Positions 3,608 through 23,870 of a DNA stretch of 32,000 nt are shown here, piece after piece. Both the position numbers and the translations under genes were made by a program. Each line of letters starts with the position of its first letter. The first letter of the stretch is position 1. The stretch covers positions 120,001 through 152,000 of the forward strand of contig JBAZRV010000001.1 in assembly GCA_041662745.1 (NCBI GenBank), given 5' to 3'. The notes beneath the pieces were generated by a model, which worked only from the letters and a program-made list of their open reading frames with translations, made no database searches and had not been told where the DNA came from. The DNA is from Patescibacteria group bacterium. GTDB lineage: Bacteria > Patescibacteriota > Patescibacteriia > 2-01-FULL-39-33.

Positions 3608-3614
3608 TAAATAA

Positions 3615-3686
3615 AATTACGAACTGCGAATTAAAAACTACGATTTAATCATTTTTTTCGTAATTCATAATTCGCAGTTCGTAATT
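3615..3686. repeat. Perfect 18-bp inverted repeat (36-nt spacer) in the tRNA-Phe/tRNA-Pro spacer
   Basis: aattacgaactgcgaatt (3615-3632) is the exact reverse complement of aattcgcagttcgtaatt (3669-3686). On the transcript the hairpin is followed by UUUAUUU. Confidence 0.9.
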
Positions 3687-3702
3687 ATTTTACAATTCAG
3701 GA

Positions 3703-4016
3703 TGCCGAGGGCGAGAATTGAACTCGCGACACAAAGATTTTCCATATGCTTGCTTGAGTTTCCTCAAGGATTGGACTATTTCATCTTCGTATTCTTACGA
3801 ACTTAGAAGTCGGGCGCTAATGTGAGATTATTGTTGGGACTCACTCACTAGTCTCTACACCTTTTCCGGAAATTTTACCCGCCGGAACTTGGCTCGAGAT
3901 TGCCTATTCGTTAAAAACGAATTTAGGTTTCCTCGAATTCACCCGATTTTCATTTTAAGGTTTCCCTTAAACGGACCAAAAATCAGTCTTCTGCTCTACC
4001 ACTGAGCTACCTCGGC
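3703..4016 (-). tRNA. tRNA-Phe (anticodon GAA) interrupted by a group I intron; exon 1 = 4016..3985, exon 2 = 3742..3703
   Basis: The joined exons give GCCGAGGTAGCTCAGTGGTAGAGCAGAAGACTGAAAATCTTTGTGTCGCGAGTTCAATTCTCGCCCTCGGCA. This is a canonical 72-nt tRNA with anticodon loop CUGAAAA and a body typical of bacterial tRNA-Phe. The mature sequence is the same for any of the three ambiguous junction placements. No encoded CCA. Confidence 0.9.
3743..3984 (-). ncRNA. Group I intron, subgroup IC3-like, 242 nt, no internal ORF
   Basis: P1 is exon GACU with intron GGUC (U.G wobble at the splice site). P10 is exon GAAAA with intron UUUUU, immediately 5' of the guide sequence. P2 is UUUAAGG-GAAA-CCUUAAA. 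P3 is UCGGGUG/CGCCCGA. P4 is UUCGAGG/UCUCGAG. P5 is CCU[AA]AUUCG/CGAAUAGG. P6 is UUCCGG/CCGGAA. P7 is GACU/AGUC. P8 is UUCGUA-AGAA-UACGAA. P9 is CUUGAG-GAAA-CUCAAG. Conserved strings GAGCCAAG, AAGGUGUAGAGACUAG and AGUCCAAU are present, and the terminal nucleotide is G. Confidence 0.85.
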
Positions 4017-4571: not shown

Positions 4572-4615
4572 AAAAAATCCCGACTCCCGCTCTTCCGCGG
4601 GGCGGGATTTTTTTT
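4572..4615. terminator. Terminator-like GC hairpin about 110 nt downstream of the 16S 3' end
   Basis: atcccg..tcccgc-tcttcc-gcgggg..cgggat forms a 6+6 bp interrupted stem. It is flanked by A6 upstream and T8 downstream, so a U-run follows the hairpin on either strand. Confidence 0.5.
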
Positions 4616-8429: not shown

Positions 8430-8564
8430 ATTCTTTGTTTAATAATAAACCGATAACACTTTCACAAATTCCAGCAAAAGCGGAATAACTGCGAAGTAAG
8501 TTATCAAGGTTCATGGGTTTTTCTACCCTTCACCTGTGTATAATTATAGCAAATCAAAACAAAC

Positions 8565-8594
8565 TTGTCAAGAGGATGAAAAATCAAGTATAAT
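8565..8594 (+). promoter_or_regulatory. Candidate promoter of the tandem ATPase gene
   Basis: TTGTCA-N18-TATAAT, about 45 nt upstream of the ATG at 8641. It lies inside the GTG-extended ORF of the track, which argues against that extension. Confidence 0.4.
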
Positions 8595-8640
8595 AACAAT
8601 AAGAAAGACAAAAAACTATCTCTTACACTACACATCATAT

Positions 8641-11600
8641 ATGACTGATACTTTAGGACCATCACTGGAAGACCTTATGACGGGAGAGGCAACCGAAGAA
8701 GAATCGGCCGGAGAAAAACTCCAACAGAAATTGACGCAAATAAAAATCAAGGAAAAAGAGGACGAGGTGGCGAAAAACGCCGACGCCTTGGGTTTGCCTT
8801 ATATTAATTTAGTCGGTTTCCCTATTTCTCCCGACGCGCTAAGCTCTATTGCTGAAGCAGCGGCCAAAGCCGCTCAAGCGATTTGTTTTTTCAATAACGG
8901 TTCGGAGTTGCGCGTCGGTTGCGTAAATTATAATGATGAAGTCAAAAAAATAGTGGCTGACTTGCAAGAAAAATTCCACGCCAATGTCCTGCCTTATCTT
9001 ATTTCCCAACACAGTTTTGAACGCTCGGCTAAATTATATGACTCTCTGCCTAAAATCACCCGACTGGTGGGCGGAGTGGAAATAAAAAAAGAAGATATTG
9101 AGCGTTTTGAAAAAGAAATAACCACTTTCAAAGATTTAAATGAAAAAATAAATAAAGTTAGCATCACTGACGTAGTGGCGATTATTTTGGCAGCCGGCCT
9201 TAAGGCCGAAGCTTCGGATGTCCATATTGAAGCCGAGGAGAAAGGCATCATAGTGCGCTTGCGCGTGGATGGCGTTTTGCATGATTCGGCCATGATTGAA
9301 AAAGATAAATGGAAAAAAATAATTGCTCGCCTTAAAGTTTTGGCGCGAGTCAAAATCAATATTGATGACAAGCCCCAAGACGGCCGTTTCACTATTTTTT
9401 TAGAAGATGACGCCGTGGATGTCAGAACATCCTTCCTGCCGACTAATTTTGGCGAGAGCGTGGTTATGCGTTTACTGCATTCCCAGTCAGTCGCCCTGTC
9501 TTTTGAACAGCTGGGTTTATTGCCGGCGGCCTTTAAAACATTGGAGGCGGAAATTAAAAAACCCAACGGCTTAATCTTGACTGCCGGCCCTACCGGCTCG
9601 GGTAAAACCACTACCCTGTATGCAATTCTCAATAAACTCAATCATCCGGACGTAAAAATCATCACTTTGGAAGATCCGATTGAATATCGCCTTAAGGGCA
9701 TTAACCAATCACAGGTAGACCCCAAGAAAGATTATACTTTTGCCAAGGGCTTGCGTTCTATTTTGCGCCAAGATCCGGATATTGTAATGGTTGGCGAAAT
9801 TCGCGACAATGAGACGGCTGATATCGCCACTCAAGCGGCCCTGACCGGCCACCTGGTGCTTTCTACCGTCCATACCAACGATGCGGCCGGCGTGATCCCG
9901 CGCTTAATGGATATGGGCATTAAACCCTTCTTTATTGTTCCGTCCATTAACGCCGTTATCGGCCAACGCTTGGTGCGTAAACTTTGCGAGAAATGCAAAC
10001 AACCGCATCAAATTACAGAAGAGGAAAAAACCACCATAGAGAAGATTTTGGCGACCATCTCGCCCAAATCGGGCATTGATGTTCCGGCCAACCTGCCCCA
10101 AATGTACGAACCCGGTCCGGGTTGCGAGACTTGTGGCGGCATCGGCTATAAGGGCCGCATCGGCATCTATGAAATTTTCACCATGACCGACAATATCAAA
10201 ACCTTGACTATGGCCGGAGCGGCGGCTTTTGAAATTCTCAAACAAGCGATTGAAAACGGCATGATTACCATGTTGCAAGACGGCATCATTAAATCTTTAA
10301 ACGGCGTTACTGATGTGCAAGAAGTTTTCCGCGTTATCGGCAAATTGGATTATGTGGAAGAACTTTATGATATTGTCATTACTCAAACAATCGGCCGTGG
10401 CATCAGTTTGACTGCCAAAGAATTAATAAAAGGCGAGGAACTATCCAAAAACTTAAAACAAATCCAAGAAAGCTTAGAAAATCTGCCCGCCAAAGAATTA
10501 ACGGCTCTATTAATGGCTGCAGCGCTTAAAGCGGATGCCGGCGATATTCATATTGAACCGACCGATACCGGCGTTAAGGTGCGCTTCAGAATTGATGGCA
10601 TCTTATATGATATGGCTACGCTGGATAAAAGCCAATACCTGCCGGTTTTATCCAATATGAAAATTTTAGCCGGCATGCCCACCAATATTAAAAAGGCGGC
10701 TTGGGACGGACGGTTCGGCATCTTTACGCCACAAGCTAAATTGGATTGTCGCATTTCCATTATCTCCGGCGGTTACGGTGAAACAATCGTTATCCGTATT
10801 TTATCGGCGCAAGCCGCCAGCCTGAGAGTTGAGGATTTGGGTATGCGCGAGTATTCTTTAAGGTTGCTGCAAGGGTCAATGGAAAAGACTAAGGGTATTA
10901 TTGTCACTACCGGGCCGACGGGCTCGGGCAAAACCACTACCCTGTATGCCCTGCTTAATCAACTTAACAAACCGGACACCAAGATTATTACCATAGAAGA
11001 TCCGATTGAGTATCATTTGGCCGGCGTAATGCAGACGCAAATTGATGAGGCTCAAGGCTACACTTTTGCCGCGGCCATGCGTTCCTTGTTGCGTCAAAAT
11101 CCCAACATCATGATGATCGGAGAAATCCGCGATAGCGAGACGGCTAAAACAGCGATTGAAGCGGCTTTGACCGGCCACTTAGTCTTATCCACCATCCACA
11201 CCAATTCCGCGGCCGGCGCCTTCCCGCGTTTCTTGGGGTTAGGCATTGAACCTCATATTTTAGCCAACTCCTTAGAGTGCACTATTGGCCAACGTTTAGT
11301 CAGAAAAATCTGTCCTTATTGCAAACAGCCGGTTGAGCTTAATCCGGAGATTGCTGGGGAGGTGGAAAAAATAATCAAAAGCATCAATACCAAATCGGGA
11401 GCCAAAATACCTGATAAACCGACTTATTTCAAAGCGGTTGGTTGCGAAAAATGCGGCGGTTTGGGTTACAAAGGACGTTTAGGCATCTATGAAGTCATAC
11501 CGAATACCGCTGAAATGCAAAAAGTGGTGCAAGGACCGGCGGTTACCAATTTGGAAATTGAAGCCTTAGCCGTTAAAGAAGGGGTAGTTCTAATGCTGCA

Positions 11601-11667
11601 GGACGGTATCCTAAAGGCTATGGCCGGAGAAACAACAGTGGAAGAAGTATTCCGAGTAGCCAAATAG
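8641..11667 (+). CDS. Tandem-duplicated PilB/GspE-family secretion ATPase (N-terminal T2SSE_N-like domain plus two complete ATPase modules)
   Basis: Each motif occurs twice. Walker A GPTGSGKTTT at nt 9586 and 10912. Asp box ITLEDPIEY / ITIEDPIEY. Walker B DPDIVMVGEIRD / NPNIMMIGEIRD. His box TGHLVLSTVHTN / TGHLVLSTIHTN. Tetra-Cys CEKCKQ..CETCGGIGYKGR / CPYCKQ..CEKCGGLGYKGR. Both modules end EVFRV. The start at ATG 8641 is preferred over GTG 8536. Confidence 0.85.
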   Translation: MTDTLGPSLEDLMTGEATEEESAGEKLQQKLTQIKIKEKEDEVAKNADALGLPYINLVGFPISPDALSSIAEAAAKAAQAICFFNNGSELRVGCVNYNDEVKKIVADLQEKFHANVLPYLISQHSFERSAKLYDSLPKITRLVGGVEIKKEDIERFEKEITTFKDLNEKINKVSITDVVAIILAAGLKAEASDVHIEAEEKGIIVRLRVDGVLHDSAMIEKDKWKKIIARLKVLARVKINIDDKPQDGRFTIFLEDDAVDVRTSFLPTNFGESVVMRLLHSQSVALSFEQLGLLPAAFKTLEAEIKKPNGLILTAGPTGSGKTTTLYAILNKLNHPDVKIITLEDPIEYRLKGINQSQVDPKKDYTFAKGLRSILRQDPDIVMVGEIRDNETADIATQAALTGHLVLSTVHTNDAAGVIPRLMDMGIKPFFIVPSINAVIGQRLVRKLCEKCKQPHQITEEEKTTIEKILATISPKSGIDVPANLPQMYEPGPGCETCGGIGYKGRIGIYEIFTMTDNIKTLTMAGAAAFEILKQAIENGMITMLQDGIIKSLNGVTDVQEVFRVIGKLDYVEELYDIVITQTIGRGISLTAKELIKGEELSKNLKQIQESLENLPAKELTALLMAAALKADAGDIHIEPTDTGVKVRFRIDGILYDMATLDKSQYLPVLSNMKILAGMPTNIKKAAWDGRFGIFTPQAKLDCRISIISGGYGETIVIRILSAQAASLRVEDLGMREYSLRLLQGSMEKTKGIIVTTGPTGSGKTTTLYALLNQLNKPDTKIITIEDPIEYHLAGVMQTQIDEAQGYTFAAAMRSLLRQNPNIMMIGEIRDSETAKTAIEAALTGHLVLSTIHTNSAAGAFPRFLGLGIEPHILANSLECTIGQRLVRKICPYCKQPVELNPEIAGEVEKIIKSINTKSGAKIPDKPTYFKAVGCEKCGGLGYKGRLGIYEVIPNTAEMQKVVQGPAVTNLEIEALAVKEGVVLMLQDGILKAMAGETTVEEVFRVAK

Positions 11668-15109: not shown

Positions 15110-15181
15110 GCCGCCATCGTCTATCGGTTAGGACAGCGGGTTTTCAATCCGTTAAGCGGGGTTCGACTCCCCGTGGCGGTA
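15110..15181 (+). tRNA. tRNA-Glu (anticodon UUC)
   Basis: 72-nt cloverleaf: GCCGCCA/TGGCGGT acceptor (G1.U72), GTCT..GGAC D arm, anticodon loop TTTTCAA, T arm CGGGG-TTCGACT-CCCCG. No encoded CCA. Confidence 0.9.
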
Positions 15182-15186
15182 CATAA

Positions 15187-15306: not shown

Positions 15307-17178
15307 TTAAGGAATAATCAATAATTCTGAAGTGGTGGTCGCTACTACTCCGATTAAACACACTGCTTGCCAGGGCCTGTAAACAGAAGAAAAAGTGGTT
15401 GTTGCCGTATGTCCGTCAGAATAATCAACAATATAATTAAATGATGCGCTTACCCCTTTATGGGAAACCTCGGTGCATTTTTGTTCTCCTGGTTTTAAAT
15501 CGTTACTCTCAATAATTTTAGTAGGAAGAGGGTCTTTCCACCCCCAAACCTTCGGTTTTGTTCTGGTGGCAGTGCGTCCATCATTAATTCCCCAAAAATC
15601 AAAGTATAATTTATCGCCCTCTATTCTGGCTTGGATTAAAATGTAATTGCCGGTATCGTTTTTAAATCTTAAATCCGGCTTGGGATCATAAATTGTCGCA
15701 TCAACTCCCGGTAAGCCATTTTCTAAATAATAAGTTACATTGTAAGAATGGTTCTGTCGTTCCAAAATAGGCAAACCGGAGGCTAAAGCGGCGCGAAAAA
15801 CCGTAGTTCCTATCTGGCATAATCCGCCGCCGTATTCTGCCGTAGTTTTATTGCCTTTAATCACTAATTCGGGAAAATAACCGTTAGCCGCGTCTACCGG
15901 CAATAAGGCTTTAATTAAGGAAAACTCCTCATCCGGCTTAATCAACAAGCCATGCAGCTTGGCGGCGCCGTTTTTAATGTTTTTGCGGCGATTAGTCGGG
16001 CTGCCGGCGAATGATGATTGTCCGGTACCGATAATTTCTTTAATGCCAAGATCATTAACCTGATCGGTTGTTACCTCAGGATAAACTTCTTTGGTGATTA
16101 TGGTTATCTGATTAACAGAATAGCTATTGTTAATTATTTTTTGATTAAAATCATTATAGGCTTCTTCTTTATCAGCTTCCAATCCGTTTTGATGAGTTGA
16201 TAACTTATTCACTTTGCCGTCTTTTATTTCCAAAGAAGCGTTTTTAGCCGGCAGATCTAACTCTGGGCTGATATTTAATTTAAACCAATCAAAAAATTTA
16301 TCTTGATTAATGCCAACGGCTATTTTATTACCTATTTTTTGGAATTCTATCAATTGGCTTAGGCTTTTTTTGCTTAAAATCCATCTTTTATCCTGATAAG
16401 TAAATTCTGTACTGGAGGCGTTAAGGATGGTTTGTATTTCATTCTGCTTATTACTTACTTCTATTTGCTTTATTTGCGGTTGCGAAATAATCGGATTAAC
16501 TTTTATTGGCCTGTTTTCTAATTGATTAAGGTTATCCTTTATTTCTTTGATAATACCGTTATAATCGATAAGTAACCCTTGTTTTTCCGGTAAAATCGTT
16601 ATTTGGCAATTATTTTTTTCACATTCAATATTAGGAGCGGAATTTATTGCTGGCTGCTCTAATGATTTAAATTGTTGCTTTAATAAATTAATTAATAATT
16701 CTTCGTTTAATTTATAACTGGCTGATAATTTCTTATGGCCGGAAAGTACATCTAATTGCTGAACAATATTTAAAAATAAATTATTATTATGGCCTAATTG
16801 AAAATTACCATATACTGTCTGATGAATATCAAAAAATAATAAATCAACTCCCGAAACATCCGGATCTTCCGGTATTTCTAAAGGTGAAATTTTTTCCTGA
16901 TTATCACTTTGATAGATAAAACTGAAGCCATCTTGGCTTATTTTATTAGTCTTATTTTCTATTTTGTCTAATGCTTGACTAATAGTTAAATTTGACAAGT
17001 CAGTTGAGCTTATACGACTGCGAGGGAAAAATTTAACAGTATAAACTAATTCAAAAAAAATAATAAAAACAAACAAAATTAAAAAAATAACGGCGACAGC
17101 AATTATTACTAACCAGTGGCCGCTTAATTTATTATTGATCTTACTTGACTGTATTTTCTTCAGTAAATCTTCAAGCAT
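15307..17178 (-). CDS. VanW-family protein with N-terminal membrane anchor
   Basis: TM segment WLVIIAVAVIFLILFVFIIFF. C-terminal VanW-like core reads YGGGLCQIGTTVFRAALASGLPILERQNHSYNVTYY. Confidence 0.8.
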   Translation of the reverse strand: MLEDLLKKIQSSKINNKLSGHWLVIIAVAVIFLILFVFIIFFELVYTVKFFPRSRISSTDLSNLTISQALDKIENKTNKISQDGFSFIYQSDNQEKISPLEIPEDPDVSGVDLLFFDIHQTVYGNFQLGHNNNLFLNIVQQLDVLSGHKKLSASYKLNEELLINLLKQQFKSLEQPAINSAPNIECEKNNCQITILPEKQGLLIDYNGIIKEIKDNLNQLENRPIKVNPIISQPQIKQIEVSNKQNEIQTILNASSTEFTYQDKRWILSKKSLSQLIEFQKIGNKIAVGINQDKFFDWFKLNISPELDLPAKNASLEIKDGKVNKLSTHQNGLEADKEEAYNDFNQKIINNSYSVNQITIITKEVYPEVTTDQVNDLGIKEIIGTGQSSFAGSPTNRRKNIKNGAAKLHGLLIKPDEEFSLIKALLPVDAANGYFPELVIKGNKTTAEYGGGLCQIGTTVFRAALASGLPILERQNHSYNVTYYLENGLPGVDATIYDPKPDLRFKNDTGNYILIQARIEGDKLYFDFWGINDGRTATRTKPKVWGWKDPLPTKIIESNDLKPGEQKCTEVSHKGVSASFNYIVDYSDGHTATTTFSSVYRPWQAVCLIGVVATTTSELLIIP

Positions 17179-17398
17179 TATCGGTTTGAAAAATTTTTTT
17201 TAATAAATTCTTAGTTTGATCCTCTTGGTATTTATCATCAATTTGTTCTGGCAAAATACTGATTTTAACCGTTTCGCCGTCTTTTATAATCCAATTGATT
17301 TCTTTTTTCGGCCAAAGCAATTCTCTTCCATCTTCAAATTTTATCACTAAGAAATCACCCGCCTGCTCGCTAATCACTCCCTTTTCCTGATTAATCAT
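17171..17398 (-). CDS. Small protein, DUF3006-like
   Basis: 75 aa. GVISEQAGDFLVIKFEDGRELLWPKKEI..KDGETVKISI resembles the DUF3006 pattern. Its stop overlaps the vanW start by 8 nt. Confidence 0.45.
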   Translation of the reverse strand: MINQEKGVISEQAGDFLVIKFEDGRELLWPKKEINWIIKDGETVKISILPEQIDDKYQEDQTKNLLKKIFQTDNA

Positions 17399-17401
17399 AA
17401 A

Positions 17402-17839
17402 TTACTCATTTATTTGCCTTATTTTTATTCCTGATGTTTTATATTTTTTTGGTAATTTTATCGTTAATACGCCATTCTTAAGATTAGCATCTATTTTTTT
17501 CTGGTCAACTTCCCGCGGTAAAACAATTGAACGGGAAAAAGCCCCCCAATAACATTCTTGAGAATAATAATCTTCCTTAATTGCTTCATCTTCCTGTTGG
17601 CGCGAACCCCTGATAGTCAATAAATCATTAGAAATAGAAATATCCAGATCCTCCGGTTTGACTCCGGCAACCGTAGTTCTGACTATAATATCGTTTTTTG
17701 TTTCATAAACATCGCAAGATAATTGGGCTTCCCCGTCAAACCATTGGGGATTATTGCCAAAATACCCAATAAAATCATTGTTTTCTTGAGTATTCATGCT
17801 TTCCATACTTGTCTTTGTTTTTAAGAAAGAATTAGCCAT
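17402..17839 (-). CDS. Hsp20/alpha-crystallin small heat-shock protein
   Basis: Alpha-crystallin domain DVYETKNDIIVRTTVAGVKPEDLDISISNDLLTIRG...FSRSIVLPREVDQKKIDANLKNGVLTIKLPK. Confidence 0.85.
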   Translation of the reverse strand: MANSFLKTKTSMESMNTQENNDFIGYFGNNPQWFDGEAQLSCDVYETKNDIIVRTTVAGVKPEDLDISISNDLLTIRGSRQQEDEAIKEDYYSQECYWGAFSRSIVLPREVDQKKIDANLKNGVLTIKLPKKYKTSGIKIRQINE

Positions 17840-17950
17840 ATGTTTATATTATAACAGGATATTAAAAATAAATATAGACTAATACTTGACTTTATTATAT
17901 TTTAATCTTGAGGTATCTATTATATAATATAGCTATATTAATAAATTTTT

Positions 17951-18373
17951 ATGTTTAAAGAAAACCAACCATTAATAAATGAAACGGATACCATTATTGG
18001 TCCATCAGTAAAAGTCGAAGGTGATTTCATTACTGAAGGCAATATTATTGTTGAAGGCATGATTTGCGGCACAATCAAAACAAGTAAAAATCTTAAAGTC
18101 GGTCCTGATTCAAAAATATTCGCCAATATTGGAGCAGAAAATGCTTTAGTTGCCGGAGAGATACAAGGTAATATTAATATAAAAAATAAATTGGAATTAA
18201 CTTCTACCGCCAGGATTTACGGAGATATAAAAACTGGCATTTTATCAATTGCCGGCGGTGCTTTAGTTAATGGCAAATGCACTATGAATGACAATAAAGA
18301 CCGCAGTCCCAAACCAGAATCAACTAAACAGAAAAAAATGGAATTAAAACCGCCGCTAATCGATAAGCAATAA
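17951..18373 (+). CDS. Bactofilin (polymer-forming cytoskeletal protein)
   Basis: Beta-helical repeat pattern IIGPSVKVEGDFITEGNIIVEGMICGTIKTSKNLKVGPDSKIFANIGAENALVAGEIQGNI...IYGDIKTGILSIAGGALVNGKCTM, with a disordered basic tail. Confidence 0.85.
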   Translation: MFKENQPLINETDTIIGPSVKVEGDFITEGNIIVEGMICGTIKTSKNLKVGPDSKIFANIGAENALVAGEIQGNINIKNKLELTSTARIYGDIKTGILSIAGGALVNGKCTMNDNKDRSPKPESTKQKKMELKPPLIDKQ

Positions 18374-18383
18374 ATTATTTATG

Positions 18384-18410
18384 CCCGCGGTTAAAACGCG
18401 GGTGTATTTT
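18384..18410 (+). terminator. Candidate terminator after the bactofilin gene
   Basis: cccgcg-gttaaaa-cgcggg followed by tgtatttt. Confidence 0.4.
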
Positions 18411-18418
18411 AATTGATT

Positions 18419-19174
18419 ATGTATTATTACATTTACGATAATTATTTAAATGAGGCCAAATACAGCAATACTCTTTCCAAAATAGAGTCACGGTTGGCTG
18501 ATTTTGGAATTAATGGAAAAATAACCAGAATCTCCCCTTTAAAAAATCTTAAATTAACTTTACGCGATGATTTAAATCAAGGCATAAAAACAGTGGTAGT
18601 AGTAGGCAATGATAAGACTTTAAATCAAATAATCAATCTTTTACCTAATTTATCATTAACTTTAGGATTTATACCGGTTGGACCTAATAATAATTTATGT
18701 AATATTTTTGGCATTCCGGAAGGGGAAGAGGCATGTAATATCTTATCGCAAAGAATAATAGAAAAAATAAGTCTCGGCTTAATAAATGATCATTATTATT
18801 TTATTTCTTACTTAGAAATGTCCGGTGATAATATCAATATTAATTGTAATGATGATTATTATATTAGTGTTGATAAAAAAAACAGTATTATAACTGTTAG
18901 TAATATTTATTACGGGGAATATACCAATAAAATTCCTTTAGTTAATAATAATAATTGGCTTAATTTAGTAATTAAAAATGTTAATAAAAAAATATTTTCT
19001 CAATCAAAAGAATTTTTCAGTTATTTTAAAGCGAAAAAAATAAAAATAGACAGTGATAAATCAATTCCCATACTTTTAATTGATGAGAAAAGAATCATTA
19101 AAAATCCAATAAAAGTAAATTTAGCGCCAGAAAAAATAAATCTAATTGTAGGAAAGAATAGAAAATATAATTAA
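18419..19174 (+). CDS. Diacylglycerol/lipid kinase-fold (DAGK_cat / YegS-like) protein with degenerate catalytic motifs
   Basis: Family pattern ..TVVVVGNDKTLNQIINLL...LGFIPVGPNNNLCNIFGIP. The canonical GGDGT is replaced by GNDKT and GTGND by GPNNN. The TTG at 18413 is an alternative start. Confidence 0.55.
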   Translation: MYYYIYDNYLNEAKYSNTLSKIESRLADFGINGKITRISPLKNLKLTLRDDLNQGIKTVVVVGNDKTLNQIINLLPNLSLTLGFIPVGPNNNLCNIFGIPEGEEACNILSQRIIEKISLGLINDHYYFISYLEMSGDNININCNDDYYISVDKKNSIITVSNIYYGEYTNKIPLVNNNNWLNLVIKNVNKKIFSQSKEFFSYFKAKKIKIDSDKSIPILLIDEKRIIKNPIKVNLAPEKINLIVGKNRKYN

Positions 19175-19205
19175 AAAACCCCTCCTTTAGTAGGAGGGGT
19201 TTTTT
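19173..19205. terminator. Bidirectional intrinsic terminator
   Basis: aaaaaacccctcct-ttagt-aggaggggtttttt lies between convergent genes. Confidence 0.75.
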
Positions 19206-19207
19206 AA

Positions 19208-20347
19208 TTACTGCCTGATAGGCATAATTAAATAGAGATAATTATTGTCTTCACCTCTGATTATACAAGGATTATTAGGATCACTAATGGAAAATTCTGC
19301 TTTTTCCGAAGTTAATACTTGTAATCCATCTAATAAATATTTATAATTCAGAATAATTTCCCCGCCTTGGCCGATTTTTTCCATTTCTACCACTGATTCA
19401 TTTTCACCTGTTTGAGAAGATGAAGAAGTGATTATTAATTCATTGGGAGATTTATTATAATCTAATTTTATATCAAATACGCCGTTTTTTACAAATAAAC
19501 TGGCAGTTTTTACCGCTTTAATTAATTCATTAATATTAACCTTTAATTTATTTGGACATTCTATGGGTATGATTTGATTATAATCGGGATATTGTCCGTC
19601 AATTAAACGGGAAATAAATTCTACACCATTATAAACAAACATAATTTGATTTTCATTGGTGTAAATTTCTATATTCTCTATTACTTCTAAATTATCATCA
19701 TCTTTAAATACGCTTAAAATACGGGAAATCTCTTGCAGTGATTTGGCGGGAATAATGACTTTTTCATTATTATTTGATTTAGAATTTTTATTATTCTCAA
19801 TATAATCAATTTTTATCTCCGCTAAACGATAACTGTCAGTAGCGGCTAAAATTAATTTATTATCAGAAAAATCCATTAAAACACCGGATAATTCCGGCCT
19901 TAATTCGGAATTAGCGGCTGAAAAAAACACGCTATAAATGGCGTCTCGCAATTTTTTAGCGGAAATAATATAAGGGTTTTCTTTTTCAATTTTAGGTATT
20001 AAAGGAAAGTCAGAAGTATTTTGGCCTTTTATTTTAGTTTTTTGTTTTTGACATTGAACTTTTAATTCTTCATTAATCAATTCCAAATCAATCCGATCTT
20101 TAGGTAATAAAGAAATATAATTATTAAGTAACTTAGCGTCAATTGAAAATTCCCCGTTATTTTCCACTTTACTTCTAATATTAACAGTTACTCCAACCTC
20201 TAAATTAGTCGCTGATAAAGTTAAATTATTATTTTCAGCTTTAATTAAAATATTAGCCAATATTGGCAAATTAGAATTTTTTCCTGCTATATGGGAAGTA
20301 ATATTTATTGCTTGATTAAGATTTTCTTGAGTGCAAGATAATTTCAT
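19208..20347 (-). CDS. dnaN: DNA polymerase III beta sliding clamp
   Basis: 379 aa. Begins MKLSCTQENLNQAINITSHIAGKNSNLPILANILI and ends PCIIRGEDNNYLYLIMPIRQ. Lies directly downstream of dnaA. Confidence 0.9.
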   Translation of the reverse strand: MKLSCTQENLNQAINITSHIAGKNSNLPILANILIKAENNNLTLSATNLEVGVTVNIRSKVENNGEFSIDAKLLNNYISLLPKDRIDLELINEELKVQCQKQKTKIKGQNTSDFPLIPKIEKENPYIISAKKLRDAIYSVFFSAANSELRPELSGVLMDFSDNKLILAATDSYRLAEIKIDYIENNKNSKSNNNEKVIIPAKSLQEISRILSVFKDDDNLEVIENIEIYTNENQIMFVYNGVEFISRLIDGQYPDYNQIIPIECPNKLKVNINELIKAVKTASLFVKNGVFDIKLDYNKSPNELIITSSSSQTGENESVVEMEKIGQGGEIILNYKYLLDGLQVLTSEKAEFSISDPNNPCIIRGEDNNYLYLIMPIRQ

Positions 20348-20682
20348 ATTAGTATTTATAATAATATATATATAACTAATAATAGTAATAATGGACTGGT
20401 TAAAGTGTATAACTATTATTATATCTTATAGTTGTTGGATTTTATTGATAATTTACTTGTTGATAATAACTGCTTAATTTGATTTGATATCTTTATAATT
20501 TAGGTAAAAATTTATTACTTTATTTTTCCCCACTTAATAATCAAATTAATTCACTGTTTTAACACTCTTAAGTCACTTTATTATTAGTGATATCACCAAG
20601 TTATCCTAAAGTGGAAAAAATGAGGATAAGTTTTTTCCACTATTATAATTATTTATCACCAAGTTATCCACTAAATATATAA
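20348..20682. other. dnaA-dnaN intergenic region: AT-rich tract plus DnaA-box-like motifs (candidate oriC half with the unwinding element)
   Basis: TTATCCACT at 20664-20672 and TGAGGATAA at 20621-20629 each have 1 mismatch to TTATCCACA. TTATCCTAA is at 20601. A 16-nt direct repeat tatcaccaagttatcc occurs at 20591 and 20654. 20348-20560 is very AT-rich. Confidence 0.5.
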
Positions 20683-22098
20683 TTAAACGAATAATTTTTG
20701 CTTGATTATATTTACATCTTGCCTGATTTTTTCATTTATTTTAATAAGATTAATAATTTTATCGCAAGCATGTATAACAGTGGTGTGATCGCGCCCGCCT
20801 AATTCTTGGCCGATTACCGGATAGGATAATTTAAGCTCTTCCCGCATTAAATACATAATAATTTGGCGCGGTTCAGTTAAATTTTTCTTTCGGCAAGGGC
20901 TTATAATATTATCAATAGTTATATCATAATATTCAGAAACTAATTTAATTATATTTTTTGGGGTTAAATTGTTTTTTTGGTTATTACTGATTGTGGCCGC
21001 GGTAATCTGTTTAACCTCTTCTAAAGAAATAGAGCGATTTTGCAGTTGGGTTAAAGCAATAACTCTATTTAATACCCCTTCTAATTCCCGAATATTATTT
21101 CTAATTGACCCGGCTAAATATTCAATAATATTATACTCTAGTGTAGTATTTTTTTCTTTTAATTTCTCTTGAATAATTGCGATTTTTGTCTCTAAATCAG
21201 GAATGGAAATATCAACGATCATTCCCCATTCAAAACGAGAAATTAAACGCTGTTCAATATCCGGTATCGCTTTAGGCGGCCGATCAGAAGAAATAATAAT
21301 TTGTTTGTTATTTTGGTGTAATTCATTGAATATATTAAAGAAAATCTCCTCAGTTCTTTCTTTATTAGATAAAAATTGGATATCATCAATTAAAAGAACA
21401 TCCAAAGTCCTATATTTATTATTAAATTCTTCCATGGAGCGCTGGCCGTTACCGGAAAGATTGCGTACAGCTGTTAAATAATCATTGGTAAAATTTTCAC
21501 AAGTTGTATAAAAAACCTTAATTTCCTGGTTATTTTCCAATATTTTATTGCCAATAGCATGCATTAAATGGGTTTTACCCAATCCAACACCGCCATAAAT
21601 AAATAAGGGATTATAGGCTGTGCCAGGAGATTTTATTACTGCTAAAGCCGCAGCATGGGCTAAATCATTATTTTTTCCTACAATAAAAGTATTAAGAGTA
21701 TACTTATAATTTAATCCATTTTTATTATTAGGCAATTTTTCATTGCTTACCCGATTAGGCGATTCAAATATTTCTTTAATAGGAGTTGTTTTTTCATTGC
21801 TAATTATAACTTCTACTGGTTTAGTAAAAGCATTTTTATTTTGGGTTGATGACTCTATTTTATATTCAATTTCTTTTAAATTATGATTATTGGTTATATT
21901 TCTGATCGCTTTTAATATGGCGCTGTGATATTTTTTAGCCAAATATTCCTTAGTGAAAATATTAGGGACATTAATCACTACTTTATTATCATCATAACTA
22001 ACTATATTAGTATGCCTAAACCAAGTAGTAAAATTAGCTTTAGATAATAAAGTTTCTAATTCTCCTAAAGTGGCCTGCCAGAGTTCTTGTGGTGTCAT
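20683..22098 (-). CDS. dnaA: Chromosomal replication initiator DnaA
   Basis: Walker A GGVGLGKTHLMHAIGN, Walker B LLIDDIQFL, sensor/box VII region ISSDRPP, C-terminal DNA-binding GGRDHTTVIHACDKI. Confidence 0.95.
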   Translation of the reverse strand: MTPQELWQATLGELETLLSKANFTTWFRHTNIVSYDDNKVVINVPNIFTKEYLAKKYHSAILKAIRNITNNHNLKEIEYKIESSTQNKNAFTKPVEVIISNEKTTPIKEIFESPNRVSNEKLPNNKNGLNYKYTLNTFIVGKNNDLAHAAALAVIKSPGTAYNPLFIYGGVGLGKTHLMHAIGNKILENNQEIKVFYTTCENFTNDYLTAVRNLSGNGQRSMEEFNNKYRTLDVLLIDDIQFLSNKERTEEIFFNIFNELHQNNKQIIISSDRPPKAIPDIEQRLISRFEWGMIVDISIPDLETKIAIIQEKLKEKNTTLEYNIIEYLAGSIRNNIRELEGVLNRVIALTQLQNRSISLEEVKQITAATISNNQKNNLTPKNIIKLVSEYYDITIDNIISPCRKKNLTEPRQIIMYLMREELKLSYPVIGQELGGRDHTTVIHACDKIINLIKINEKIRQDVNIIKQKLFV

Positions 22099-22166
22099 AC
22101 TAAAATATTAATTAAGTAAAGGTATTAAAAGGAGTTTCTATTTAAGTTAATAACATTTTATCATAA

Positions 22167-22232
22167 TTATCCACAATTGGAAACCGATCAAAAAAAGAAA
22201 GAAAGGTTAAACTGTTAATAACTTGTGGATAA
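22167..22232. promoter_or_regulatory. Two perfect DnaA boxes in inverted orientation between dnaA and rpmH
   Basis: TTATCCACA at 22167-22175 and TGTGGATAA at 22224-22232, read directly. Confidence 0.75.
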
Positions 22233-22304
22233 TAATTTTTATTGACTTATAATAAAAAAAATGTTACTTTTACTTTAGTTATTAATAATCATTTTTAGTA
22301 TTTT

Positions 22305-22460
22305 ATGGCAACTAAAAGAACTTATCAACCACATAAAGTTAAAAGGGTTAAAAAACATGGTTTTAGAGCTAAAAACCGTACCCACACAGGTAAATTAGTC
22401 TTAAAAAGAAGAAGAGCCAAAGGAAGAAAGAAGTTGGTTATCTCGGCTGGATCTAAATAA
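22305..22460 (+). CDS. rpmH: 50S ribosomal protein L34
   Basis: 51-aa ORF missing from the track: [51 protein letters not shown]. Has the classic position upstream of rnpA. Confidence 0.9.
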
Positions 22461-22484
22461 TTATAATTTGGCTAAATTTACATT

Positions 22485-22823
22485 ATGTTGGCCAAAAAAT
22501 ATAGAATCTCTAAAAAGCAAGAGTTTGAAAAAATATTCAAAAACGGCAAAAAAGACTCAAGTCATAATTTTATTATCAGATTTATGGATAATGACTTAGA
22601 AAACTGCCGTTTTTCTGTTATTGTCAGTAATAAAATTAGCGGTAAAGCCACGGAGAGGAATAAGATTAGACGCAGAGCCAAGGCTATTATAAGTGATAAT
22701 TTGTCTAATTTTAGGAAAAATATTGATCTATTAATTATAGCTCTATTACCAAGTAAAAAACTTGATTTTGCCAATTTTAACAGTGATATTGTAAAATTAC
22801 TGGTAAAAAACAAAATTATATGA
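22485..22823 (+). CDS. rnpA: Ribonuclease P protein component
   Basis: 112-aa basic protein with RNR-type motif [12 protein letters not shown], in the order rpmH-rnpA-yidD-yidC. Confidence 0.85.
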
Positions 22824-23074
22824 ATTTTTTGTCTAATTTTACAAAAATTTCAGTTTTAAGACTAATAAAAATTTATCAAAAGATATTATCATTTGATCAT
22901 GGCTTATTTAAAAATCTATTCCCTTACGGTTATTGCCGTTTTCACCCAACATGCTCAGAATACGGCTATCAAGCTATAGATAAGTATGGAGTAATAAAGG
23001 GTGGTTTTATGGCATTTATTCGTATTCTTAAATGCAATCCTTTTTCTAAAGGCGGCTTTGATCCGATAAAATAA
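22820..23074 (+). CDS. yidD: Membrane protein insertion efficiency factor YidD
   Basis: YQKILS...[37 protein letters not shown]. Overlaps the rnpA stop by 4 nt. Confidence 0.85.
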
Positions 23075-23083
23075 CTTAAAATT

Positions 23084-23833
23084 ATGATTAATTTGATTAT
23101 AAATGCTTTTAATTTGATTTGTTATCAGCCATTACTTAATTTATTGGTTTTTGTTTATAATATTATTCCCGGACACGATATTGGTCTGGTGATAATTACT
23201 TTGACTTTATTAATAAAATTAGCTTTATATCTGCCATCACGCAGTACGATTAAAGCCCAGCAATCATTACAGGAGTTACAGCCGAAAATTGATGAAATGA
23301 AAGAAAAATATAAAGATGATAAAGAACGGCAAGCCAAAGAAATGATGAATTTGTATAAGGAGCATAAAATTAATCCACTCTCTTCTTGTTTGCCCTTGCT
23401 TATCCAATTGCCTTTTTTAATTGCCATTTATCAAGTGTTTAATACCGGTTTAAGAAATGGCAGTTTATCTTTGCTTTATCCGTTTATTGCTAATCCCGGC
23501 CACATCAACTCTTTAGCTTTTGGATTTTTAGATATGGCTAAACCCCAATGGATTTTGGCCGTTTTAGCCGGCGCCGCGCAATATTGGCAAGCATCTATGA
23601 TGATTGCCAAACGTCCGGCAATTAAAAATAAAGACAGCAAGGATGAGGATATGTCAGCGATCATGAGTCGTCAAATGACGATTATGATGCCTTTAATGAC
23701 CATAGTAATCGGTTGGAGTCTGCCTAGCGGTTTGGTATTTTATTGGTTATTATTAACAGTTTTCACTTCCTTGCAACAATTAATCACAAAAAAGAAAACA
23801 ATTACCGATAAAGCAGAAGTTATAAATAATTAA
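23084..23833 (+). CDS. yidC: Membrane protein insertase YidC (short form)
   Basis: QPKIDEMKEKYKDDKERQAKEMMNLYKEHKINPLSSCLPLLIQLPFLIAIY and PSGLVFYWLLLTVFTSLQQ motifs; multiple TM segments. Confidence 0.85.
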   Translation: MINLIINAFNLICYQPLLNLLVFVYNIIPGHDIGLVIITLTLLIKLALYLPSRSTIKAQQSLQELQPKIDEMKEKYKDDKERQAKEMMNLYKEHKINPLSSCLPLLIQLPFLIAIYQVFNTGLRNGSLSLLYPFIANPGHINSLAFGFLDMAKPQWILAVLAGAAQYWQASMMIAKRPAIKNKDSKDEDMSAIMSRQMTIMMPLMTIVIGWSLPSGLVFYWLLLTVFTSLQQLITKKKTITDKAEVINN

Positions 23834-23840
23834 AGTAATT

Positions 23841-23868
23841 AAAAAACCCGGAAACTTCCGGGTTTTTT
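23841..23868. terminator. Bidirectional intrinsic terminator
   Basis: aaaaaacccggaaacttccgggtttttt lies between convergent yidC and the PBP gene. Confidence 0.75.
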
Positions 23869-23870
23869 AA

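Follow-up and report, generated by a model that had tools for sequence, protein, structure and literature searches.

The 32,000-nucleotide (nt) stretch of contig JBAZRV010000001.1 analyzed here, hereafter called the window, comes from a Patescibacteria group bacterium and carries on its minus strand a gene for tRNA-Phe(GAA) that is split by a group I intron. Exon 1 (4016-3985, 32 nt) provides tRNA positions 1-33 and ends with U33, whereas exon 2 (3742-3703, 40 nt) provides positions 34-73, begins with the anticodon GAA and does not encode the CCA end. The intervening intron (3984-3743, 242 nt) extends from G1 to the terminal G242, the omega-G at 3743. ARAGORN identifies the joined exons as a tRNA-Phe(gaa) with a regular cloverleaf, the anticodon GAA and the discriminator A73, and with introns allowed it reports a tRNA-Phe(gaa) that carries an intron of 242 nt. 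Comparison with the Rfam model RF00028 (Intron_gpI) yielded 86.4 bits relative to a gathering score of 50 (E 6.4e-21), with a match at 4014-3752 of the minus strand that spans the full model (1-253). Because this score and E value were obtained over the entire model, the group I match is far beyond chance. Based on comparisons with related sequences, the locus is very probably a functional tRNA-Phe(GAA) gene whose 242-nt intron codes for no protein, is inserted at U33/G34, belongs to the Phe.2Ug class (see below) and supplements an Azoarcus-like core with a contact between an extra hairpin and the P6a loop.

The split gene had been proposed in a sequence-only reading of the window. Its exon and intron coordinates agree in full with those read from the sequence and found by ARAGORN, the placement of a group I intron between U33 and G34 is borne out by ARAGORN and by the RF00028 score, and the cmsearch run that it suggested gave a match above the cut-off. 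The exact junction is ambiguous between 33/34 and 34/35 because the insert starts and finishes with G. ARAGORN chose 34/35; this choice was rejected as it places a G instead of a U at position -1, the mature tRNA being identical either way. Since only 33/34 provides both a U at -1 and an intron-terminal G, which are needed for group I chemistry, the junction was set there.

The intron has a GC content of 43%. It contains no homing endonuclease, as the sequence-only reading had noted; the longest open reading frame (ORF) that overlaps it comprises 38 amino acids (aa), and no candidate maturase is encoded within or adjoining it. By default, ARAGORN calls three tRNA genes in the whole window, Pro(TGG) at 3607-3534, Ile(GAT) at 4178-4104 and Glu at 15110-15182. 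The split tRNA-Phe escapes both the default ARAGORN search and the Rfam tRNA model. It is the only tRNA-Phe visible in the window, in accordance with the earlier observation; ARAGORN and Rfam found no second one within the 32 kb.

Helices of the intron and their covariation

Each helix named in the sequence-only reading is present. P1 (3988-3974) is formed by G30-U33 of exon 1 (3988-3985) and G8-C11 of the intron (3977-3974), that is GACU/GGUC, and includes the wobble U33.G8. In the P1 loop (nt 1-7), residues U3-U7 of the guide (3982-3978) pair with G34-A38 of exon 2 (3742-3738) to form P10 (GAAAA/UUUUU). P2 (3971-3954, 7 bp) and P9 (3768-3753, 6 bp) are hairpins, each with a GAAA loop (L2 at 3964-3961, L9 at 3762-3759). 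The 5' strand of P3, UCGGGUG (3946-3940), has as its partner the 3' strand CGCCCGA (3816-3810). P4 (UCGAGG/UCUCGA, 3936-3894) surrounds J4/5, which reads AAA, and the P5 hairpin (CCUAAA...UAGG, 3927-3903) with its bulged AA. P6 (GCC/GGU) and P6a (UUCCGG/CCGGAA) occupy 3893-3859, and the P6a loop contains a GGG at 3880-3878. P7 consists of the 5' strand GAGACUA (3855-3849) and the 3' strand UAGUCC (3778-3773); G132-C211 is the predicted guanosine-binding pair by analogy with the Azoarcus intron. An extra, P7.1-like hairpin lies between P7 and the 3' strand of P3 (P3') at 3848-3822. Its stem is GUGAG/CUCAC and its 17-nt loop, UGAGUCCCAACAAUAAU, includes a CCC at 3838-3836. This hairpin and the terminal G had both been pointed out before and are in the sequence.

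The layout of the earlier drawing stands, but details of it were corrected. G92 belongs to P6 rather than P4, according to Rfam and the family alignment. P7 is present but was redrawn as G130-C212 plus GACUA/UAGUC, with A131 bulged. P8 (3809-3785) is likewise present and is better drawn as CUUC/GAAG, an internal loop UAA/AC, GUUC/GAAU and a loop GUAA. Another P8 register, from U184-A199 onward with an AGAA loop, was dropped for this family-consistent drawing, which rests on the family because the minimum free energy (MFE) fold of the window prefers the dropped register. When the intron is folded by itself, its MFE structure contains P2, P3, P4, P5, P6, P6a, the extra hairpin and P9 (z = -3.25).

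Relatives were sought in one genome per species (GTDB) with a pattern composed of the end of exon 1 and the intron guide, which an uninterrupted tRNA-Phe gene cannot match. At least 119 loci were obtained, 84 of which are complete split tRNA-Phe genes; the remaining 35 of the at least 119 are chance matches in unrelated phyla or lie on cut contigs. The introns of the family are 216-299 nt long, and 15 of 18 sampled relatives score above the RF00028 cut-off (60-89 bits). Copies with at least 95% identity were dropped, which left a non-redundant set of 63 with a mean pairwise identity of about 62%, aligned with MAFFT. The nearest relative of the window intron is 73% identical to it.

Over the whole structure, 90.1% of the cells in this alignment are paired, compared with 80.1% in shuffles, and 45 pairs change on both sides; the observed values were reached in 0 of 500 shuffles. 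A shift of the partner by 1-3 columns reduces pairing to 31-54%. All seven pairs of P2 change on both sides (96% of the cells paired), and L2 is a GNRA loop in 62 of the 63 copies. Covariation is seen in four of the seven pairs of P3 (99.3% paired), in three of the six pairs of P4 (99.7%), in the proximal pairs of P5, in P6, in all six pairs of P6a (98.4%) and in all six pairs of P9 (97-100%), where L9 is GAAA in 47 of 63. All five pairs of the stem of the extra hairpin covary, with 97.6% pairing of the inner four and 82.5% of the outermost. The pairings proposed from the single sequence for P2, P3, P4, P6a, P9 and the extra hairpin thus held up in the alignment. P1 is paired in 63 of 63 copies, with U33.G8 being U.G in every one, and P10 in all 62 copies with data; both are invariant save for C or U at intron nt 7. 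P7, paired in 63 of 63, is invariant. The terminal G occurs in 68 of 68 family members and was not imposed by the extraction rule. The distal parts of P5 and P8 were judged by folding each sequence separately instead of by MAFFT columns; when folded one by one, all 63 sequences form a hairpin directly after P3', the position of P8.

L2 and L9 of the window intron are both GAAA loops, and receptor-like motifs are present in its P8 (UCUAAG..UACGA) and P5 (CCUAAA..UAGG); in most relatives, P5 and P8 carry different motifs. The P8 motif is near the 11-nt GAAA-tetraloop receptor, of which the closest relative, L043, has the canonical form CCUAAG...UAUGG. In P5, 50 of the 63 copies have neither the 11-nt nor the 10-nt receptor motif. 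By analogy with Azoarcus, contacts of L2 with P8 and of L9 with P5 are proposed for the window intron.

Just below P5, A57 and C83 (3928 and 3902; columns 76 and 148 of alignment A1) are A.C in 32 copies, G.U in 24, A-U in six and G-C in one. Such alternation of A.C and G.U is characteristic of isosteric wobbles, in which it is the shape of the pair that is conserved. The pair adjoins J4/5, a region that in other group I introns recognizes the P1 wobble.

The extra hairpin, its predicted partner and a proposed splicing pathway

Across the family, the 17-nt loop of the extra hairpin scarcely varies and reads UGAG(N)CCCAACAAUAAY. Among the matches listed, the motif was found in 81 of the 84 complete split loci, and it also occurs in the published seed sequence Mba55.Phe.2Ug; two family members, L057 and L069, have a different insert at this position. 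The CCC of the loop (3838-3836) varies jointly with the GGG at the start of the P6a loop (3880-3878). All three positions are able to pair in 60 of 61 family members, as opposed to a mean of 52.8 and a maximum of 57 in 10000 trials with shuffled partners. To sample variants, viral contigs were searched for copies with one C of the triplet changed. With these relatives included, the exact Watson-Crick complement is present in 123 of 142 distinct combinations (shuffle mean 88, maximum 100). Among the 32 variants with a triplet other than CCC, the triplet is matched by its exact complement in 24, three more pair by means of G.U, and only two retain GGG. The same register rule was applied to real and shuffled partners. 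The shuffles ignore the relatedness of the sequences, and the P6a loop was located by an anchored stem finder that fails on a few long P6a inserts.

Seven triplet pairs were seen: CCC/GGG, CCU/AGG, UCC/GGA, GCC/GGC, ACC/GGU, AUC/GAU and CUC/GAG. Because seven compensations across differing P6a stems are hard to explain otherwise, a loop-loop contact was deduced. It is thus highly probable, as far as covariation can tell, that the CCC of the hairpin loop and the GGG of the P6a loop form a 3-bp Watson-Crick contact that links the P4-P6 domain with the area beside the guanosine site. Classical IC3 introns work without the hairpin, and L057 and L069 have something else in its place, so that it could be regarded as a neutral insertion into an otherwise ordinary IC3 intron. 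A neutral element would not be expected to keep its 17-nt loop nearly invariant while its stem covaries, nor to change its CCC in step with the P6a loop in seven triplet pairs, nor to recur on 63 viral contigs and in the published Lys.2Ug and Asn.4Ug seeds; this explanation is considered very unlikely.

The 63 viral contigs of IMG/VR (L240-L300, L213, L228) contain introns with the same hairpin (UGAG(N)CCCAACAAUAA), a GGG-bearing P6a loop and the same P3/P3' strings. Not one of these 63 introns splits a tRNA or contains the Phe guide sequence; therefore, they probably interrupt protein-coding genes. A description of the contact between the P6a loop and the hairpin was not found in the literature searched, which left out much of the older structural work. 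The contact may be new, as may the occurrence of the same structural lineage on phage contigs outside tRNA genes. It is conceivable, though somewhat short of an even chance, that the hairpin together with the P6a-loop contact defines an undescribed group I subclass, which would comprise tRNA introns of the candidate phyla radiation (CPR; Phe and probably Lys and Asn) and introns on phage contigs and in which a loop-loop clamp adjacent to the guanosine-binding site would stand in for the larger peripheral domains of other subgroups.

The following pathway is proposed for the tRNA-Phe reading with the Phe.2Ug-type intron. The precursor RNA, probably transcribed together with tRNA-Ile and tRNA-Pro, would fold into a compact Azoarcus-like core in which the P3-P8 and P4-P6 domains are linked by the P7 pseudoknot and in which the loop-loop contact would connect the P4-P6 domain with the neighborhood of the guanosine site. 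The guide GGUC would pair with G30-U33 of exon 1, and the U33.G8 wobble of the resulting P1 would define the 5' splice site. The attack after U33 would come from a free guanosine that occupies P7, and the UUUUU beside the guide would hold G34-A38 of exon 2 in P10. The terminal G242 would then replace the free guanosine in the binding site, and ligation of the exons would restore the anticodon loop CU/GAAAA. That the split tRNA-Phe is spliced in this way is suggested by conservation.

Some observations weigh against this interpretation or weaken its support. The shuffle controls ignore phylogeny, and the significance of the covariation is to some degree overstated. Because P1, P7 and P10 never vary, they lend no covariation support. 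The distal parts of P5 and P8 are only 40-56% paired on the MAFFT alignment, where stems of variable length are misaligned, and the window's own MFE fold favors a P8 register other than the one drawn. P10 of the window contains a G.U where most relatives have G-C, and P1 of the window has 4 bp where many relatives are able to form 5.

Some organellar group I introns depend on a host protein for folding. The same could hold here: the insert would be a true group I intron that does not self-splice alone. The shortness of P1, with only 4 bp, the P5 and P8 receptor motifs that are variable or degenerate in most relatives (neither P5 motif in 50 of 63), and the AT-richness of CPR genomes, with 43% GC in the window intron, are compatible with such a dependence. 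The conservation of the entire catalytic core and of three peripheral contacts speaks for an autonomous ribozyme, as does the lack of a candidate maturase in or beside the intron; moreover, the compact related introns from Azoarcus and Anabaena self-splice. A requirement for a host protein is therefore deemed unlikely.

Known relatives, distribution and descent

According to the survey by Williams (2020, bioRxiv 10.1101/2020.01.27.920355), 80,413 bacterial genomes contain 5292 tRNA genes split by group I introns, which raised the number of known tRNA settings from 4 to 21; the survey also states that the four classical settings are the only ones in tRNA that GISSD lists as IC3. The seed alignment of the survey includes Mba55.Phe.2Ug, an intron of tRNA-Phe at site 2 (33/34) with U at -1 and a terminal G, and the classical intron of cyanobacterial tRNA-fMet, fMet.2Ug in this numbering, occupies the same 33/34 site. 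The window intron has the host tRNA-Phe, the 33/34 position, the U at -1 and the terminal G of Phe.2Ug. Since the seed alignment already holds Mba55.Phe.2Ug, the class is on record, and the window intron adds one more member to a class that was listed in 2020 and is common in CPR bacteria. The survey lists Phe.2Ug, and its text is silent on the hairpin, the distribution among CPR bacteria and any tertiary contact. The sequence-only reading had considered a tRNA-Phe(GAA) host and an insertion at 33/34 to be unusual. Neither view can be upheld, given Mba55.Phe.2Ug, which has the same hairpin loop, and the classical fMet intron at the same site.

Mba55.Phe.2Ug is 79% identical to the window intron over 210 aligned positions, which corresponds to 67% of the window intron length. 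The two share GGGUGAAUUCGGGGAAA, GAGCC.AG, GAAGGUGUAGAGACUA, AGCGCCC, AUAGUCC and the hairpin loop ugagucccaacaauaau. They differ in the guide, which in Mba55.Phe.2Ug is AUCUU, UUGGGGC and serves a different anticodon stem and loop (GCCCU/GAAGAU), and in P5, P8 and P9, the last of which is very short in Mba55.Phe.2Ug. When expressed over the length of the window intron, the hairpin-bearing Phe, Lys and Asn seeds are 67-71% identical to it and the Azoarcus, Leu and fMet seeds 56-61%; over aligned positions, these published IC3-type seeds reach 72-76%. The Lys.2Ug (Dba165) and Asn.4Ug (Pam37) introns, with 68-71% over the window intron length, are the highest among the published seeds. They share with the window intron the P3/J3/4 string GGGUGAAUUC, the P3' string AGCGCCCG and the P7-P3' hairpin with its ...AACCAAUAA loop, and differ from it in hosts, sites and guides and in the loop triplet, which to the eye appears to be matched in the P6a loop (GCCA/UGGC and AGGC/GCCU).

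The tRNA-Ile(CAU) intron of Azoarcus, a member of IC3 with crystal and cryo-EM structures (e.g. PMC13168695), resembles the window intron in its compactness, its location in an anticodon loop, the lack of an ORF and the same order of helices. AAGGUGUAGAGACUAG is identical in the two introns, which also have AAUUCG..GAAACCUAA, GAGCCAAG, AUAGUCCA and AGUCCA in common, as well as GAAA in L2 and L9 and motifs of the 11-nt-receptor type in P5 and P8. The likeness to the Azoarcus and cyanobacterial introns noted in the earlier reading is real, with AAGGUGUAGAGACUAG identical in the Azoarcus seed and GAGCCAAG and AGUCCA shared. Unlike the window intron, that of Azoarcus is GC-rich, is inserted after position 36 ('Ile2.5Ug'), has only GA and no hairpin between P7 and P3', has a P6a loop without a partner, and is 56% identical over the window intron length. 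The fMet.2Ug intron has the 33/34 site, the U at -1, the terminal G and an IC3-like core in common with the window intron; it differs in host tRNA and guide, lacks the P7-P3' hairpin, is 56% identical over the window intron length and in some copies contains an endonuclease ORF (PMC5733544). In IA introns, such as those of phage Twort and T4 td, P7.1/P7.2 is inserted at the corresponding position, after the 5' strand of P7 and before the 3' strand of P3, and in Twort it packs around the guanosine-binding pocket (PMC1995217). The IA introns have two helices there and a different core, whereas the window intron has a single hairpin on an IC3-like core with a partner in the P6a loop. The earlier assignment to IC3 holds for the core sequence and the helix plan, which are IC3-like, but not for the conserved 27-nt hairpin between P7 and P3'. 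As the IC3 plan does not include such a helix, the intron is not classified as plain IC3.

The hosts of the 84 complete split genes listed are Moranbacteria, Falkowbacteria, Magasanikbacteria, Parcubacteria, Berkelbacteria, Saccharibacteria and other CPR bacteria or metagenome-assembled genomes (MAGs) with uninformative labels. Twenty-three family loci are labeled 'Gammaproteobacteria' or 'Bdellovibrionales'; these labels were distrusted because one such contig, L003 from a MAG labeled Bdellovibrionales, is 100% identical over 5864 nt to L013, which is labeled Parcubacteria group bacterium. Taxon labels of CPR members among the 'binchicken' TPA (third-party annotation) assemblies look unreliable, and L115, labeled Methylomirabilis, has a split tRNA-Phe of the CPR type. 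The survey of related genomes that had been suggested thus revealed the same split gene, with the insertion at 33/34, in at least 84 species-level genomes. As nearly all of these are CPR genomes, and as group I introns in tRNAs of complete CPR genomes were noted in 2021 (PMC8172020), the earlier impression that a CPR host would be unusual did not hold. No uninterrupted tRNA-Phe was found in the at least 119 fetched loci, among the 259 uninterrupted tRNAs called in them.

An alternative reading is that the window contains a tRNA-Phe pseudogene with a decayed, non-splicing intron, the codons being read by another tRNA-Phe gene. Only a window of the genome is visible, and ARAGORN and the Rfam tRNA model miss the gene by default, which leaves some room for this explanation. 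A decayed gene would however hardly retain exons that form a perfect cloverleaf and an intron in which all core helices pair, nor would the arrangement have survived in at least 84 genomes whose introns have diverged to about 62% identity and accumulated compensatory changes. For complete CPR genomes, a full set of tRNAs is reported, some of which carry group I introns that hampered their detection (PMC8172020). Decay is regarded as extremely improbable.

The 16S rRNA of the window is about 80% identical to that of CPR loci, 88% identical to L043 and, over 625 nt across the 16S 3' end, 89% identical to a Buchananbacteria locus. This 16S similarity and the distribution of the intron family place the source organism in CPR. 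The identity of the introns tracks that of the 16S genes (Spearman 0.83, only 10 non-independent pairs from 5 genomes). Since intron identity rises with 16S identity, the trend fits mainly vertical descent. Because IMG/VR viral contigs carry introns of this lineage in genes that do not encode tRNAs, the intron could be a recent horizontal acquisition, with a phage as one conceivable donor, rather than a product of vertical inheritance within CPR bacteria. A recent arrival is at odds with the absence of an endonuclease ORF, the occurrence of the Phe-specific guide in 0 of 63 viral copies, an identity of only 73% to the nearest relative, the parallel rise of intron and 16S identity in the small sample, and a neighborhood of 16S and tRNA-Phe that several CPR genomes have in common. 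Recent transfer is thus rated as quite unlikely.

In a separate observation, the IC3-type core pattern GCCAAG..AAGGTGTAGAGACTAG was found on at least 120 IMG/VR viral contigs (L120-L239). Among the viral matches listed, 63 contain a tRNA that according to ARAGORN is split by an intron of at least 120 nt: 36 tRNA-Leu(UAA), 13 called 'Tyr(ata)', four Met and others. A review of 2014 stated that all phage group I introns then known resided in protein-coding genes, despite the many tRNA genes of phages (PMC3984707). The split tRNAs on viral contigs may belong to the host, as neighbors of prophages, or may stem from bacterial DNA that was binned wrongly.

Genomic surroundings and significance

All genes of the tRNA cluster are on the minus strand. 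tRNA-Ile(GAT) (4178-4104) lies directly upstream of tRNA-Phe and tRNA-Pro(TGG) (3607-3534) directly downstream, both identified by ARAGORN and Rfam; in many relatives, too, the split tRNA-Phe is followed by tRNA-Pro(tgg). A terminator-like hairpin with perfect 15-nt arms, a 2-nt loop and a T run (3516-3485, minus strand, a consensus match only) is the likely end of the tRNA unit. Because tRNA-Phe sits between tRNA-Ile and tRNA-Pro, with the strong terminator-like hairpin after tRNA-Pro, the three tRNAs are likely co-transcribed. Most of the gap between tRNA-Phe and tRNA-Pro is filled by a 34-nt inverted repeat (3610-3691, 85% complementary, 14-nt spacer), which may serve in the precursor as a processing hairpin or one of the RNase III type.

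Upstream of the cluster is a 16S rRNA gene without an insertion (6195-4721, minus strand; RF00177, 1453 bits). A 16S gene is also located upstream of the split tRNA-Phe in L066, L025, L051, L043, L038 and L055, and about 155 nt past the 16S 3' end are conserved with L038. The 542-nt gap between 16S and tRNA-Ile contains a GC-rich hairpin with flanking A and T runs that is terminator-like on both strands (4572-4613), a promoter-like site at 4563-4535 on the minus strand, an 87-aa ORF without a Pfam match (4482-4219) and a second terminator-like hairpin (4202-4187). Given the terminator- and promoter-like features in the gap, the tRNA cluster may have a transcript of its own, apart from that of the 16S gene. 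Downstream of 16S come tRNA-Ile, tRNA-Phe and tRNA-Pro in this order instead of tRNA-Ala and 23S; Rfam detected neither 23S nor 5S genes in the 32 kb, and the rRNA genes appear to be unlinked. In L067, the MAG 'bacterium isolate C24_maxbin.235', the region homologous to 16S occupies about 2.4 kb in two blocks, which suggests that its 16S gene carries an insertion, as often reported for CPR bacteria.

Genes for tRNA modification are located within 10 kb of the tRNA cluster, namely those of TrmD, the m1G37 methyltransferase (7927-7211), TsaE (12737-12300) and TsaD (13787-12756). A protein of 1043 aa (8536-11667) contains two type II/IV secretion ATPase (T2SSE) regions in a single chain. A block of low GC content (16000-24000; 0.25-0.32 versus about 0.42 elsewhere) starts just to the right of tRNA-Glu(TTC) (15110-15182) and may represent an island of horizontal origin that was integrated beside a tRNA gene.

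For annotation, the findings imply that default tRNA finders miss the split gene, so that tRNA-Phe seems to be missing from CPR genomes if no search for split genes is made; such genes are recovered cleanly with the junction pattern of exon 1 end and guide. For RNA structure, the family offers a natural collection of diverse group I ribozymes of small size (216-299 nt) in which covariation supports an additional loop-loop contact. The split arrangement has been kept across CPR lineages whose 16S sequences are only about 80% identical, and the exons and the ribozyme core, which are intact across this deep divergence, were counted in favor of splicing being essential, as were the lack of another tRNA-Phe in the window and of an uninterrupted one in the fetched loci, and the full tRNA sets reported for complete CPR genomes despite group I introns in some of the tRNAs (PMC8172020). 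The gene is presumed to be the sole tRNA-Phe gene of the genome, which is likely in genomes of less than 1 Mb. If this is true, the reading of every phenylalanine codon would depend on the ribozyme reaction.

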